Source: an uncultured Bacteroidota bacterium (GTDB lineage: Bacteria; CLD3; SB21; JBBIRG01). From it: a DNA stretch of 64,000 nucleotides. A model generated the notes under the pieces. It saw only the letters and a list, made by a program, of their open reading frames with translations. It had not been told where the DNA came from and ran no database searches. The DNA lies in the NCBI GenBank assembly GCA_964609675.1, contig CAZSRX010000016.1:1659-65658 (forward strand), written 5' to 3'. Each line of letters opens with the position of its first letter. Position 1 is the first letter of the stretch. Shown here piece after piece: positions 32,688-39,988 of this stretch. The translations under genes and the position numbers were made by a program.

Positions 32688-34484
32688 TCAGAATGAACCC
32701 GGAGAATTAATTTCCTGCGATAACCGCTGCAGATGGCCGGATACTTCCACCATTTTCTGGCTTTTACGATGGAGTTCCTTGGCGCTGGCATCGAGGTCCT
32801 TGATGCTGGACCAGACCTGCTCGTGCGCAATCCGCTGTTGCTGGATAGCGATGGATATATTGCCGACGGAATCGGTAACCTGGCGGATGGCGCTATGAAT
32901 TTCCTGAAAAGACAGCTGGGCGTCATTGGCGTTGCGTACCGCCTGATTGACCTGTTTGAGTTCTTTTTCCATGGCCAAAACAGAGACATGGGATGTTTTT
33001 TTTACGTCCCCGATGATTTTTTTTATTTCTTCAGTCGAATCGGAAATATTCTGCGCCAGCTGGCGGATTTCTTTGGCCACTACGCCGAACCGCTCGCCCA
33101 TCTCACCGGCTGTGGCTGTTTCGATGGCGGCGTTGAAAGCGAGGATTTTTGTGTGATCGGTGACATAATTGATGATGCGGATGACATCCTCTATCTGTAC
33201 CATCTTTAAACTCAGGTCCATAATGCGCTGGGAACTGGCGATGGCTTCCTGATGAATATGATCGATACTCTGCAGGGTTTTGTCGAGATGCTCACGGCCT
33301 CTTTCAATTTCTTTCAGACCGTTCTGGGTCATGGTAGCGGCCAGGACGGCATCGGTGGAAATCTGGTTGACGGAGTGAACCAGTTCTTCGACGGTGGACG
33401 ATAATTGCGAGAGGGCGGATGCCTGACTGTATGCCACACCGGCTTCGTATTTGGTAGCGTTCAGGATTTCTTCGGTTTTTTCCCGGATATCCATACGGTG
33501 CCGGCGTATGTTTTCGATTTCCGGCGACCAATGATGCATCAGAAGCATCACCGCGTTGCCCAATTGCCCGCGTTCGTCGCTGAGAAAAAACCCGTATGGT
33601 TTGACAGCGGAGCCGTTGATGCGGTGGTTCAGAAAACGCTTGAGATAATCCTGTGTGTACTGGAGAGGGCGTATCATCGAATGGGAAATTAGCCAGGAAA
33701 TATATCCGGCCAGACCGATCGCGGCAAATAACAGTAAAATCATCTTAATGTAGAAGACATCCTGAAGATGACTATCAATCGGTCGCAAAGCCGCCCATAT
33801 GATAAAGGTAAAGACCGATACAAAAGGAACGCTGATTTGCAGAATCAGCTTGACGCGGTAACTGAGAAAACCGGATTCATCTTCTTTGACGTAATATAAT
33901 GACGGAAAAACGTTGGTAAGTTCCTGGGCTATGGTGATCATGCGGTTTTCTGCGGAGAGAAACACCATGACAGCCAGAGGGCCAAGCAATAACATACCGA
34001 TGAATAAGGCATGCACGATGCCGAGGATGACGGCCGTTGTATCGGCCGGAGTGGCTATCGCAAAAATAATTTCACGGATCAGGATCAGTGCAAAGGCCGG
34101 CGCCAGCAGTCCGTATGCCGTTATGCGGAACGGATAAGCGGTAAGCGCGCCGCCGATGAGTTTGCTGATAAATTCAGAATCGCCATGGAGCGGCCGGCCG
34201 GAGGTCATTTTGAAAAAGGAATAGGCATGCCGTAAGGCGTATCGATGCACCGCGAGGCCGGCTCCCGTAACCAGAATCACGGAAAGCAGAGCCGAAAACC
34301 ATGGATAAACCCGCAGGCTTCCGGATATGAAAATAATGTCATAATAAAAATACATTCCCGCAAGCGTCAGCAACCAGCAAGGCCACAGCAATTCGCCAAA
34401 GAGTCGCCACAGATAGCGGGTGGAGAATGTCGGTGTGAAAACAGGCGTCGAGGAGGGTTTGGTTTCATCGTTTATCGGCGTCAT
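32688..34484 (-). CDS. Methyl-accepting chemotaxis protein with a multi-TM N-terminal module, HAMP domain and MA signalling domain
   Basis: About 270 aa with at least 6 hydrophobic helices. The HAMP-like linker is followed by a methyl-accepting signalling domain (…ASSQRIMDLSLKMVQIEDVIRIINYVTDHTKILAFNAAIETATAGEMGERFGVVAKEIRQLA...). Confidence 0.85.
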   Translation of the reverse strand: MTPINDETKPSSTPVFTPTFSTRYLWRLFGELLWPCWLLTLAGMYFYYDIIFISGSLRVYPWFSALLSVILVTGAGLAVHRYALRHAYSFFKMTSGRPLHGDSEFISKLIGGALTAYPFRITAYGLLAPAFALILIREIIFAIATPADTTAVILGIVHALFIGMLLLGPLAVMVFLSAENRMITIAQELTNVFPSLYYVKEDESGFLSYRVKLILQISVPFVSVFTFIIWAALRPIDSHLQDVFYIKMILLLFAAIGLAGYISWLISHSMIRPLQYTQDYLKRFLNHRINGSAVKPYGFFLSDERGQLGNAVMLLMHHWSPEIENIRRHRMDIREKTEEILNATKYEAGVAYSQASALSQLSSTVEELVHSVNQISTDAVLAATMTQNGLKEIERGREHLDKTLQSIDHIHQEAIASSQRIMDLSLKMVQIEDVIRIINYVTDHTKILAFNAAIETATAGEMGERFGVVAKEIRQLAQNISDSTEEIKKIIGDVKKTSHVSVLAMEKELKQVNQAVRNANDAQLSFQEIHSAIRQVTDSVGNISIAIQQQRIAHEQVWSSIKDLDASAKELHRKSQKMVEVSGHLQRLSQEINSPGSF

Positions 34485-34488
34485 CGGA

Positions 34489-37431
34489 TTATCCTATTAA
34501 GCTTTCCACGGTGTCGATCAGGTTGGTTTGGTCAAATGAGCCTTTGACAATGTAAGCATTGGCGCCGACTTCGATACCGCGCCGTTTGTCATCAGCGGAA
34601 TCCCTGGAAGTAACGATAACAACCGGTATGTTCTGCAGGTTTTTTTCGGCGCGGATTTGCGCGGTCAACGTAAACCCGTCCATGAGCGGCATCTCCAGAT
34701 CGGTTACGATCAGATCGTATGTTTTCTGCCGAATTTTTTCCATGGCATCCAGGCCGTCTTTGGCTGTGTCCACATCGTAGCCATAGGCCTGGAGAATAGT
34801 TTTTTCCACCTCGCGGGTATTGAGAGAATCATCCACTACGAGGATTGTCTGGGCGGTCTTGCGCGCGGCGCCGGAAGCCACCGTGACCGAAAATTCCCTG
34901 GTCGTCAGGATTAATTGAGGTACGTGCAGAATGAACACAATTTCGTTATTGCCCGCAATGGTCGCCGAAGAAATGGTCTTGATTTTATGAAAATGTCTGG
35001 GCAGGGATTTAACGATGACTTCTTTTTCCTCAATGATATCGTCCACAATGAAACCCGCCCTCTCGCCGCTGGCATGCGCGATGATGACGAACAGTTCATC
35101 CTGAGGAACCGATTCCGTAAGGGGCACGCCCATGACGTCGCTCAAAGGGAGGATGGGAATCAGCTGATTGCGGAGACGAATGGCTTTTTTCTGGATGACC
35201 TCGATGATTTCCGAGCGGTTAATTTTCAGCGTTTCCGCCACCGAGGGTATAGGGAATGCGAATTTACTGCGTCCGGTCCGTACAAAGAGGGCGTGCAGGG
35301 AAGTGAGCGTCAGGGGAAGATGGATAGAAAAACACGTGCCGCGGCCGCGCTGGCTGTCGACGGACAAATAGCCCTTGAGTTCTTCCACGCTCTGCTTGAC
35401 CACGTCCATGCCATAGCCGCGTCCGGAGATGTCAGTAATAAAATCCGCGGTGCTGAATCCGGGGAGAAAAATCAGATTAATGATATCATTTTCGCTGAGG
35501 CGGTCAATCGCCTGATCTTCCGGGAGCAGACGTTTTTGCAGAGCGCGGGATTTGATTTTGTCCAGATCCAGGCCGCCGCCGTCGTCCCGGACCTCGATGA
35601 CAATGGACGTGCCCTCGTTACGAGCCGCGATTTCCAGCAGGCCGGTCGGCGGCTTGCCCAGTGCGCGGCGTACATCGGCAGTCTCGATGCCGTGATCAAT
35701 CGCGTTGCGGATCAGGTGAATCAGCGGTTCGTTGAGCTTCTCGACCATTTTCCGGTCCAGTTCCGTCTCCCGGCCGCGAATGACCAGTTCGACCTCTTTG
35801 CCGAGATTCCGCGCCAAATCGCGGACAGCACGGGGATAGGCGTCAAAAATAGTACTCAGCGCTATCATTCGCATGCCCATGACAATGGTCTGAATTTCAT
35901 TGATCAGCAGGGCGAATGCGGCGGCATCTTCGCGGCTGCGCTTGGTGAGGCCTTCAAATTGCTCGAGCATGCGGATGCCGCCCAGCGTGACCTCCTCTTC
36001 CAGATGACTCCATTCGGGTTCGGCATTCCGCGGCAAGGATTTACGCATACGAATAATTAATTCCTGAACCAGCCGTGAATACCGGCGCGTCTGCGTGAAC
36101 AGCTTCCGGAAATCCTGGATATTTTCGTCCCGGCGCATCTGGGCCGTGATGAGTTCGCCGACAGCATTGATCAGGGCGTCCAGTTTGTCAAGGCGGATGC
36201 GGATTTCCTCGGCGACCGTTTTTACGGCCTGCGGCGATTTATCGGGCTCAGATTCAGCGACAGAAATAAACTTTTTCTGGCCGAGCATTTCCCGCGCGGC
36301 TTTCTGTTCTTTCAGAATCTGGTTGAGTTGTTCGCGGGAGATATAGCCGAATGCAATAAGGCGCTCGCCCAGCGGAATCCGCGCGTCAGAATTCCGGTTG
36401 ACATGAAATAACTGCTCCCGGGTTATCAGGCCGGCCTGGATGAGCCGTTCACCGAGACTGTCGGCGGGGGACAGTTCCTGGCCGGCGACGACGGTTTCCA
36501 GATGGGCGCCTGTCTGTCCGATGGCAGCCTGGGTTACGCCAATCCGCGCGGCATCTACCGGCTGACCTTCGACAACCTGATCCAGTAAATCCAGTATGGC
36601 CACATCCTTGAACGATTCCTGTCCGCCCTGCTGTATGGCTGTCAGAATTCTGCGGATAACTTGCATCGTATTCGTAATAATGTTCAGGTAATCGGGCTGC
36701 CATGTGGATTTTTTTTCCCAGATCTGACGATAAATGGTTTCAATCCGCTGGGCAATACTGCTGGTGCTTTCAAATTTGAGCATCCGCGCGGATCCTTTAA
36801 GCGTATGAGCGGCCCGAAAACCTTTTTCGGCCGCCGTCATATTATCCGGCTCTTTATGAAGAACGGTACCAGCCTCCGTTATGGACCTGACATGTTCTTC
36901 CGCCTCTGTAATAAAGCGGGTTATAAAAGCGGATTTGTCCAGCACGATCGGTTTATCGCTTTTTTTAACCGGTACCGTCAAAGCAGGTTCGGCGAGTAAG
37001 ATTTCCGGAGCGGTTTTGTGCGTTGTGGCGGATACGGCTTCGCCCGGATTTTTTTGGATGGCTTCCAGGCGCTGAAGAAGGGGCTGAATATCCACATGCC
37101 CTTCCTGATTATGCGGTACAGCTTCGAGTAACGCGGACAAACCGTCCAAACTGGAAAGCAAAACATCGATTAGAGCGCTGGTTAGCGAGACCGTGCCTTT
37201 GGAAGCCAGTTGCAGTACATCCTCAACGGCATGGGACAGTTCCGACATCGGGGTTACATTAAGCATCCGCGCGGACCCCTTTACCGTATGAATGACCCGC
37301 ATGGCTTCCTGAAGGAGGTTCTTATCCGAAGGTGTTTTCTCCAGCCCAAGAAAAGCCTGGTTTAACTTCTGGATATTATCGCGTGTTTCTGCGGTAAATT
37401 TTTGGATAAATTGTGTACGGTCGAATTTCAT
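34489..37431 (-). CDS. cheA: Chemotaxis histidine kinase CheA fused to a C-terminal CheY-like receiver (FrzE-like hybrid), with an inserted MshEN-like tandem motif
   Basis: Two HPt domains (HTVKGSARML; AHTLKGSARML). Dimerisation segment. HATPase_c (HLIRNAIDHG, DDGGGLD, GRGYGMDVV). CheW-like domain. REC domain (ILVVDDSLNTREV...DLIVTDLEMPLMDG...K). Residues ~330-380 carry two 24-residue repeats LGERLIQAGLITREQLFHV.../LGERLIAFGYISREQLNQILKEQ that match the T2SSE_N/MshEN consensus. Confidence 0.85.
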   Translation of the reverse strand: MKFDRTQFIQKFTAETRDNIQKLNQAFLGLEKTPSDKNLLQEAMRVIHTVKGSARMLNVTPMSELSHAVEDVLQLASKGTVSLTSALIDVLLSSLDGLSALLEAVPHNQEGHVDIQPLLQRLEAIQKNPGEAVSATTHKTAPEILLAEPALTVPVKKSDKPIVLDKSAFITRFITEAEEHVRSITEAGTVLHKEPDNMTAAEKGFRAAHTLKGSARMLKFESTSSIAQRIETIYRQIWEKKSTWQPDYLNIITNTMQVIRRILTAIQQGGQESFKDVAILDLLDQVVEGQPVDAARIGVTQAAIGQTGAHLETVVAGQELSPADSLGERLIQAGLITREQLFHVNRNSDARIPLGERLIAFGYISREQLNQILKEQKAAREMLGQKKFISVAESEPDKSPQAVKTVAEEIRIRLDKLDALINAVGELITAQMRRDENIQDFRKLFTQTRRYSRLVQELIIRMRKSLPRNAEPEWSHLEEEVTLGGIRMLEQFEGLTKRSREDAAAFALLINEIQTIVMGMRMIALSTIFDAYPRAVRDLARNLGKEVELVIRGRETELDRKMVEKLNEPLIHLIRNAIDHGIETADVRRALGKPPTGLLEIAARNEGTSIVIEVRDDGGGLDLDKIKSRALQKRLLPEDQAIDRLSENDIINLIFLPGFSTADFITDISGRGYGMDVVKQSVEELKGYLSVDSQRGRGTCFSIHLPLTLTSLHALFVRTGRSKFAFPIPSVAETLKINRSEIIEVIQKKAIRLRNQLIPILPLSDVMGVPLTESVPQDELFVIIAHASGERAGFIVDDIIEEKEVIVKSLPRHFHKIKTISSATIAGNNEIVFILHVPQLILTTREFSVTVASGAARKTAQTILVVDDSLNTREVEKTILQAYGYDVDTAKDGLDAMEKIRQKTYDLIVTDLEMPLMDGFTLTAQIRAEKNLQNIPVVIVTSRDSADDKRRGIEVGANAYIVKGSFDQTNLIDTVESLIG

Positions 37432-37471: not shown

Positions 37472-38941
37472 TTATTGTTGCAAATATTGTTTACAGGCAT
37501 TGATTAAGTATTCGGATGAATATCCGAGCGCAGCGAAAGATAAAGAAGTGTCTTTATGCTGCTCCAGAATTTTTATGGTGTTTTTATATTCCCTCCGGGA
37601 ATCGGTTTTCTGACCCTGGAGCCAGTATAACGAAGCCAGCTGGAAATGCGCCAGAGCCATGTCCGGTTTTAAAAACAGCGCGCGCCTGAACTGATCGGCG
37701 GCGGCGGTATAGTTTTTTTCGTACATCTCAATCAGACCAAGCAGGAAGAATATTTCCGCATTCAGCGGATCGTTGGTTTGCATAATTGCGCAAACCTGCC
37801 GGGCATCGCTGAATTTTTCCTGACCGATGAGCATGTGCGTTTTAATGATCAGAAACGGCGTTTCGGTAGCGTGGTGTTCTTCCATGAGTGTGAGCGAGCG
37901 CTCGTAGTCGCCGGATTTGAATAGAGCAAATACCAGGTCGAAGGAATAAGGCGTCTCCTTTTTGGCCGTTTCTTTTTCATCCTTTACGGATAGTACCGTC
38001 TCGGTATCGGGGGTTAAAGAATCCACTTCACGCCGGATGGAGGCGACTTCTTTACGGATAGGGGTCAGATCCCGAGCCGTTTCTTTTAACGGCATAGTCG
38101 TATCCGATTTCTGATAGAGATATACATTGTCGATTTCAACCAGCCGCATGTAGCCGAAATTGTGATGCAGGGTTTCCGAAGATCCCAGAAATAAATACCC
38201 GCCGGTTTTAAGACATTCGCTGAGTTTATGGTTTATATATTCGATTTTTTCCTTGGAAAAGTAGATGGAGACATTCCGGAAAAAAATAATATCCAGATCG
38301 GTCAGTTCCGGCGGGTAGGGTTCCTGGAACAGATTGTGATACTGAAAACGGACCAGAGATTTAACGACGTCATTCACGATGCGGATGTCGGAGCCGGTTT
38401 CTTCAGCCGGTTTGAAATAGGTATTCAGATAATACGGTTCAATAGCGCGGAATGAATTTTTTCCGTACTGGCCACGACGGGCGGATTCCACGGCCTGAAG
38501 ATCGATGTCCGTGCCGATAACCGCGGCATCATACGGGCCTGTAATCATGCGGGATTCAAGAACCGTGACAGCCAGCGAGTACGCTTCCTCGCCCGAAGAA
38601 CAGCCGGCGCTCCAGATACGGATTTTTTTTTCGCTTTTTTGCCGCAGCAGTTCGGGGATGATATAGTTCTTGAGTACGCGGTAATGCGCCGGTTCCCGAA
38701 AAAAATACGTTTCGTTGTTCGTGATCATTTCAGTAAAGAAACGGATCTCAGCATTCGGGTCCGGCGATGGCTGAAGCAGGGCGTGATATTGAACCGGGTG
38801 CGTCAGGCCGAGTTGGTTCATGCGGTCCTGTATTTTTTTAGTCAAGTCGGGCAGTGCGTCCTCGGCGATCTGTATGCCGCAGTGCTCCAGAATCGTTTTC
38901 CGGAAAAGATCGAGAATGTTTTTTGTGAAGCTTGTATCCAT
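37472..38941 (-). CDS. cheR: Chemotaxis protein methyltransferase CheR with C-terminal TPR repeats
   Basis: CheR SAM-binding core (IRIWSAGCSSGEEAYSLAV, FFRNVSIYF). C-terminal TPR-like helical repeats. Confidence 0.85.
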   Translation of the reverse strand: MDTSFTKNILDLFRKTILEHCGIQIAEDALPDLTKKIQDRMNQLGLTHPVQYHALLQPSPDPNAEIRFFTEMITNNETYFFREPAHYRVLKNYIIPELLRQKSEKKIRIWSAGCSSGEEAYSLAVTVLESRMITGPYDAAVIGTDIDLQAVESARRGQYGKNSFRAIEPYYLNTYFKPAEETGSDIRIVNDVVKSLVRFQYHNLFQEPYPPELTDLDIIFFRNVSIYFSKEKIEYINHKLSECLKTGGYLFLGSSETLHHNFGYMRLVEIDNVYLYQKSDTTMPLKETARDLTPIRKEVASIRREVDSLTPDTETVLSVKDEKETAKKETPYSFDLVFALFKSGDYERSLTLMEEHHATETPFLIIKTHMLIGQEKFSDARQVCAIMQTNDPLNAEIFFLLGLIEMYEKNYTAAADQFRRALFLKPDMALAHFQLASLYWLQGQKTDSRREYKNTIKILEQHKDTSLSFAALGYSSEYLINACKQYLQQ

Positions 38942-38953
38942 GACCGCCGGATA

Positions 38954-39988
38954 TTAATACGTGAGACGGTTGACGGTGCCGGCCAGACGGACAATCTCGG
39001 GAGCGATAGCATCGAGGGGCAGAACCTGCTCCGCCGCGCCCCGTTCGATGGCTTCCTTAGGCATACCAAATATTAGCGAAGTGGCTTCGTCCTGCGCAAT
39101 GGTATGCCCTCCGGCGTTCAGGATGGCTTTCAGCCCGCGGGCGCCATCGTGGCCCATACCGGTGAGTACAACGCCCACCGTATGATGGCGGCTGACCCGC
39201 GCCAGCGATTCCAGCAACAGATTACCCGACGGGCGTTGGCCTTCATCCGCAGGCCGGTCGCTAAGTATCAGGCGGAAGGTCTCGCTGACTTCCAGATGGC
39301 AGCCGGTGTCGGCGATGTAAACATGACCGGATTCCATAGCGACATCCGGCCGCGCCAGATGCACGTTCAACGGCGATACGTCGTCAAGCCATTCCACGAG
39401 GCCTTGAACGAATCCCTCCGCAATATGCTGCACAATCAGAACAGAAGCGGCTAAATTTTTAGGCAGTTGGCTAAGCAGTGAAGCCAGGGCGCGCGGCCCT
39501 CCGGTGGAAGCCACGATACCTACCGTTTGCGTTACCGCCGGGGGCTGGTCGTCGGCCGGCGCAGGCACATGCCGGCCCGCCAGATGCGTCACCACACGGA
39601 CTTTTGAAATCAGCTTGATTTTACGGTTAAATTCGTCGTAACGCTTAAAATTGGAAAGCACTTCCAGTTCGGGCTTTTCCAGCACTTCCAGCGCGCCCAC
39701 GGACAAGGACTGGAAAGCAATGTTTGCATCCATACTCGAAGTAATGACCAGAATCGGCGTGGGATGATAGGCCATAATCCTGCGGATGGCTTCAAGGCCG
39801 TTCATGACGGGCATGTGAATATCGATGGTGATGACGTGGGGCTTAAGCGCGGCGGCCATTTCTACGGTTTCACGGCCGTTAGTTGCGCGCCCGACTACCT
39901 GAATATCCGGATCGGTCTGCAGAATGGCTTCGATGATATCCAGCGCGGTAGGCGAATCATCGGCAATGAGTACGCGTACTTTGGACAT
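38954..39988 (-). CDS. cheB: Protein-glutamate methylesterase/glutaminase CheB (REC plus methylesterase domain)
   Basis: Receiver domain MSKVRVLIADDSPTALDIIE...DIHMPVMNG. Catalytic domain with GASTGGP/HH motifs (VASTGGPRAL, GMGHDGARGL). Confidence 0.9.
   Translation of the reverse strand: MSKVRVLIADDSPTALDIIEAILQTDPDIQVVGRATNGRETVEMAAALKPHVITIDIHMPVMNGLEAIRRIMAYHPTPILVITSSMDANIAFQSLSVGALEVLEKPELEVLSNFKRYDEFNRKIKLISKVRVVTHLAGRHVPAPADDQPPAVTQTVGIVASTGGPRALASLLSQLPKNLAASVLIVQHIAEGFVQGLVEWLDDVSPLNVHLARPDVAMESGHVYIADTGCHLEVSETFRLILSDRPADEGQRPSGNLLLESLARVSRHHTVGVVLTGMGHDGARGLKAILNAGGHTIAQDEATSLIFGMPKEAIERGAAEQVLPLDAIAPEIVRLAGTVNRLTY

Follow-up and report, generated by a model that had tools for sequence, protein, structure and literature searches.

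The window analysed here, a stretch of 64,000 nucleotides (64 kb) from an uncultured Bacteroidota bacterium, contains a chemosensory operon with the order cheB-cheR(TPR)-cheA-mcp:

32688..34484, minus strand: mcp, a chemoreceptor of 598 aa with an MCPsignal domain, its N-terminal half being a polytopic membrane region (Pfam, sequence)
34489..37431, minus strand: cheA-cheY hybrid kinase gene, 980 aa, with the architecture HPt-HPt-MshEN_N-P3-P4-P5-REC (ORF and translation)
37472..38941, minus strand: cheR with C-terminal TPR repeats, 489 aa (Pfam CheR and TPR; synteny)
38954..39988, minus strand: cheB, receiver and methylesterase, 344 aa (Pfam)

The mcp gene starts 4 nt past the end of cheA and is syntenic in eight MAGs. 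The cheB gene is syntenic at loci L001, L003, L005 and L006; it is missing between ptsI and cheR at L007 and L008. The operon contains neither cheW nor a separate cheY, and no pilus, flagellar or GGDEF genes are present within the 64-kb window. The hybrid kinase is composed of the following parts:

37135..37413, minus strand: HPt domain 1, aa 7–99, with the phospho-acceptor His48 in HTVKG (Pfam PF01627 and motif position)
36646..36939, minus strand: HPt domain 2, about aa 165–262 (approximate limits), with His209 in HTLKG (Pfam Hpt and motif position)
36466..36645, minus strand: variable linker from HPt2 to the insert, aa 263–322, with low column conservation in a 17-sequence clade alignment
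36277..36465, minus strand: MshEN_N-type four-helix-bundle domain (the insert), aa 323–385
36388..36459, minus strand: motif 1, SLGERLIQAGLITREQLFHVNRNS, aa 325–348, with a canonical N-terminal half and a divergent C-terminal half
36304..36375, minus strand: motif 2, PLGERLIAFGYISREQLNQILKEQ, aa 353–376, the full consensus except for P at position 1 (regular-expression match)
36277..36294, minus strand: conserved stub R380-E-M-L-G384-Q385 ending helix 4, with R380 and G384 invariant in the clade
36205..36276, minus strand: disordered and variable linker from the insert to P3, aa 386–409 (pLDDT and clade alignment)
36022..36204, minus strand: P3 dimerisation domain, about aa 410–470 (Pfam H-kinase_dim at 410–457; a long helix in the model)
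35308..35727, minus strand: P4 HATPase_c, aa 569–708, with N box HLIRNAIDHG, G1 DDGGG and G2 GRGYGMD (Pfam)
34909..35292, minus strand: P5 CheW-like domain, aa 714–841 (Pfam)
34507..34845, minus strand: receiver domain, aa 863–975, with DD867–868, D911, T941 and K963 (Pfam)

The protein was originally predicted to be a CheA–CheY hybrid with two HPt domains and a fused receiver, and the Pfam matches (two Hpt, HATPase_c, CheW and receiver) bear this out. All four core domains that define the CheA family (PMC10782961), namely Hpt, H-kinase_dim, HATPase_c and CheW, are present, and the P3–P5 core matches the CheA of T. maritima (1B3Q) with E = 3e-83. The catalytic motifs (H48, H209, N box, G1 and G2) are intact; judged by them, the hybrid kinase is catalytically complete and presumably active. 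The two 24-residue motifs are both found as quoted in the original prediction, between the phospho-acceptor His209 of HPt2 and the start of the P3 helix at about aa 410. In the predicted structure, residues 389–409 have a pLDDT below 50, and the linker to which they belong (aa 386–409) varies in both length and sequence across the clade alignment.

The insert is a genuine homologous MshEN_N domain (GSPII N-subdomain), a four-helix bundle embedded in the CheA–CheY hybrid, and its earlier description as a tandem MshEN-like motif is confirmed. It is compact and includes two tandem 24-residue motifs, as expected of this fold. The dedicated 53-residue NCBIfam model NF053729 (‘c-di-GMP_motif, MshE-related’) matches the window protein with 54.6 bits (E = 6.8e-15; cutoff 38), the span of scores recorded for the insert being 51.4–54.6 bits. 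Profile positions 1–33 align to motif 2 and the stub R380–Q385; the stub supplies a third ‘xLG’ start, placed +29 from motif 2 as is canonical. A profile built from the clade matches PilF (E = 1.5e-9), MshE 5HTL (E = 1.8e-4) and PilB (E = 4.7e-4) in the PDB, and the insert fragment also matches NfrB, a glycosyltransferase activated by c-di-GMP, in its MshEN region. The Pfam model proposed for checking the domain, PF05157 (MshEN/T2SSE_N), gave no match at E ≤ 10 with the full protein or with fragments of 139 and 61 aa, NF053729 being positive instead; weak DUF4388 matches were the only ones in the Pfam search of the insert region. This silence is attributed to the insensitivity of PF05157 to the short MshEN_N form rather than to a missing domain. 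A word-index protein search with the 63-column profile returned two small matches and missed the clade members themselves, a limit of the index.

The insert has been shown to be clade-specific and under strong purifying conservation, as judged from the alignments. It is present in all 16 close homologues and in none of the other 104 CheA–REC proteins among the 120 homologues collected; the clade profile gives 112–125 bits for the 16 members and no more than 3.7 bits for any of the 104 others. The members come from MAGs of uncultured origin whose labels read Bacteroidota bacterium or just bacterium. Mean column identity is 78% across the insert, and the flanking linkers are poorly conserved. 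Its absence from 104 of the 120 homologues rules out a generic CheA linker, the outcome that would have undone the original prediction. The idea that the motif pair is a chance occurrence or a linker repeat with no domain identity draws on the negative PF05157 search; the profile matches and the clade-specific conservation refute it, and its probability is negligible. An MshEN_N domain directly before P3 is also found in the CheAs P0149 and P0225 and in the CheA of A. veronii, and this recurrence argues for functional coupling to the kinase core. Motif matches at L009 and L010 (Burkholderiaceae) were set aside as unrelated proteins carrying MshEN; that at L009 is a 366-aa non-CheA protein adjoining a GGDEF-EAL gene.

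The MshEN domain of VcMshE (5HTL; PMC5013675) is N-terminal in its protein and comes with an MshEN_C subdomain and a T2SSE ATPase, whereas the window protein has neither of these and carries its MshEN_N inside a CheA. Leu-2 and Gly-3 of both motifs (L326, G327, L354 and G355, corresponding to L10, G11, L39 and G40 of VcMshE) are invariant in the clade. The second half-site is wholly invariant, with L369, L373, Q376 and L326 equivalent to L54, L58, Q61 and L10 of VcMshE. Motif 2 retains the LxxxLxxQ pattern (L369, L373 and Q376), and its invariant positions in the clade are P, L, G, G, L and Q. It had been described as a perfect fit to the c-di-GMP-binding consensus, which is true of the shortened consensus but not of the published 24-mer, where position 1 is R and not P.

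Motif 1, to which two mismatches had been ascribed, has three against the full published motif (R1→S, L21→N and Q24→S). The LxxxLxxQ pattern formed by L25, L29 and Q32 in VcMshE is broken here: L341 is kept, a one-residue deletion falls at Leu29 in the HMMER alignment to VcMshE, and the Gln32 position is occupied by S, T or N in the clade and by Ser in the window protein. N345, within motif 1, is invariant in the clade, and D349 is likewise clade-specific and invariant. In half of the clade, R, K or Q takes the place of Gly18. Position 1 of the MshEN motif is an Arg that stacks on guanine; both motifs lack it, the Arg9 equivalent being S325 (R in most relatives, for example the RLG-type P0010, HNL26008.1) and its counterpart in motif 2 being the invariant P353. 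S325-x-x-E328 has the sequence of a capping box and might make the N-terminal end of helix 1 more stable, the feature that blocks binding in PilF GSPII-A. The spacer between the motifs, DARI, has four residues versus five in VcMshE, so that the 53-residue unit is not attained; the motif-to-motif offset is 28 and constant in 16 of 16 relatives. Spacer length is variable within the MshEN_N family, because other CheA-embedded MshEN_N domains have spacers of two residues.

The best PDB sequence match to the insert is GSPII-C (aa 303–359) of Thermus thermophilus PilF, with which it shares the ‘PLGE’ start of motif II and the third motif; GSPII-C, GSPII-B and GSPII-A (6F8L, 8PDK and 9G1W) belong to a pilus ATPase, unlike the window CheA. 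The notion of such a fusion is not new. Wang et al. 2016 listed MshEN_N–CheA fusions as bioinformatic predictions (PMC5013675, Suppl. Table 4 and Fig. 3c). Their fusion has MshEN_N directly upstream of P3, as in the window CheA; unlike the latter, it is proteobacterial, retains P2 and has a single HPt without a REC. It also scores lower with NF053729 (45 versus 54.6 bits), with more degenerate motifs and a longer inter-motif loop. The P0149-type CheA (840 aa; ENA ERZ21878443, a 5.18-Mb contig) and the fragment P0225 share HPt-HPt-MshEN_N-P3-P4-P5 with the window CheA. The P0149-type protein differs in having no REC, a 2-residue spacer and a canonical motif 1, RLGEILIQRGVISAQQVAQVLETQ; its gene has cheW and a short cheR downstream, and its lineage is distinct from the window clade.

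FrzE, WspE and ChpA, examples of multi-HPt CheA–REC hybrids of the ACF and Tfp classes, resemble the window CheA in lacking P2, in having several HPt domains and in joining a receiver to the C-terminal end of the CheA core. To our knowledge, no MshEN_N insert has been reported in FrzE, WspE or ChpA. The label ‘FrzE-like’, given earlier to the window protein, does not hold as a statement of membership: the operon has no cheW, its MCP is membrane-bound and its kinase has two HPt domains, whereas Frz is a frzA–frzZ-type cluster with cheW genes and the cytoplasmic FrzCD. The resemblance to Frz is confined to the CheA–CheY fusion and the cheR with TPR repeats, the window operon comprising in addition cheB and a single mcp. 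Pfam recognises two Hpt domains and a C-terminal receiver in the kinase, and no P2. Of CheAs with several Hpt domains, about 93% fall into the ACF or Tfp class, and a C-terminal REC is present in more than 90% of those (PMC10782961). The two HPt domains and the REC point away from flagellar chemotaxis and towards a system of the ACF or Tfp class; an output through type IV pili, or one unrelated to motility (ACF), is likelier than a flagellar one. The ‘chemotaxis’ of the original prediction was an overstatement in this respect, as the output may not be flagellar.

CckA is a c-di-GMP-controlled histidine kinase with its site in the CA domain; it is not a CheA and has no MshEN. In the hybrid histidine kinase ShkA, c-di-GMP acts directly by liberating a domain (PMC6969517). 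The window CheA would share with both the concept of a second messenger acting directly on a hybrid histidine kinase; the ShkA site, however, is a pseudo-receiver linker and not an MshEN, and ShkA is not a CheA.

As regards c-di-GMP binding, the sequence points both ways, the half-site of motif 2 being canonical and that of motif 1 not. PilF GSPII-A is a proven non-binder and GSPII-C a proven binder (PMC11731258; PMC12002112), the affinity of GSPII-C resembling that of MshEN, with a KD of about 0.5 µM. Their NF053729 scores are 55.5 and 54.0 bits, respectively, and the score was dropped as a predictor of binding; since GSPII-A scores alike and does not bind, MshEN family membership does not predict binding. 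In MshE, mutating any conserved hydrophobic residue cuts affinity more than 10-fold, changes of R9 and Q32 shift it by about fivefold at most, and with G11L and G40I c-di-GMP leaves the Tm unshifted, in line with binding that is poor or absent. Position 1 is tolerant: K and L are found in the binder GSPII-B (KD 6 nM) and P in the binder GSPII-C. A literature search found no published c-di-GMP binding measurement for any CheA. No GGDEF, EAL, HD-GYP or PilZ motifs were found in the 64-kb window or in the small sample of about 140 kb at loci L001–L008; one ‘GAEEF’ candidate for a c-di-GMP enzyme proved to be a D-Ala-D-Ala carboxypeptidase.

The reading that we prefer, with confidence about evenly balanced, is that of a complete CheA–CheY kinase in which an acquired MshEN_N serves as a sensor of a cyclic dinucleotide, most probably c-di-GMP; we infer the ligand, the direction of its effect and the cellular output. 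The bundle of about 60 residues would have been acquired by one uncultured FCB-group lineage at the place where classical CheAs have P2, and flexible linkers would tether it between HPt2 and the P3 dimerisation helix. Ligand bound at the helix N-termini of both motifs might compact or rigidify the bundle beside P3; in PilF GSPII-B, binding unfolds the first turn of helix 1. Such a change could alter the reach of the tethered HPt domains to the P4 ATP site or to the C-terminal receiver, so that kinase output would integrate the receptor signal with the cellular level of the second messenger. The narrower proposal, in which CheA is itself the second-messenger receptor in this clade, its MshEN_N binding c-di-GMP and gating phosphotransfer from within, is held more tentatively. 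Still less likely are two variants of it, one in which the altered first half-site favours a different cyclic dinucleotide and one in which the ligand connects both subunits of a CheA dimer.

It is rather unlikely that the domain lost nucleotide binding, or never had it, and acts as a ligand-free docking module, a rigid ‘landing pad’ in the place of P2 that would recruit, for example, a response regulator, CheB or some component of the output machinery. The same role has been proposed for the non-binding GSPII-A domain of PilF, but the block in GSPII-A needs contact with an MshEN_C subdomain, which is missing here. Moreover, the invariant residues are the ligand-contacting ones of the second half-site (G355, L369, L373 and Q376) together with L326 and G327, and a pure docking surface would have no need to retain Gly-3 and Gln-24. 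Quite improbable is a sensor of altered specificity, for instance for 3′3′-cGAMP or an asymmetric ligand instead of c-di-GMP, its pocket retuned by N345, D349, the missing Leu29 and a spacer of four residues. The pairing of a canonical half-site with one that is conserved but different is what an asymmetric ligand might call for, and VcMshEN binds cGAMP measurably (KD 3.3e-4 M), its binding of c-di-AMP being undetectable. Against this, both Gly-3 backbone positions that read guanine are kept, and the case for such a sensor is inferential. We know of no MshEN domain that prefers a ligand other than c-di-GMP.

The 2023 genome-wide survey of CheA architectures (PMC10782961), which describes CheA as lacking a sensor (input) domain, does not list an MshEN_N insert, an omission that probably reflects the insensitivity of PF05157 to the short form of the domain. 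As the fusion was tabulated in 2016, the value of the clade lies in offering a better test case and not a new concept. It provides a well-conserved, cleanly delimited test object of about 63 residues, with natural variants at position 1 (RLG versus SLG) and at the first turn (G versus R, K or Q). The known links between c-di-GMP and chemosensory systems run through separate adaptors or through further components, examples being chemoreceptors that contain PilZ, the protein PlzC, and MapZ, which acts on CheR. Further links of this kind are YcgR, which acts at the motor, and the Cle proteins, which resemble CheY. A CheA that itself binds the messenger would, if the preferred reading is true, run counter to the general view that CheA lacks an input domain and would be the shortest possible connection between c-di-GMP and chemosensory signalling.

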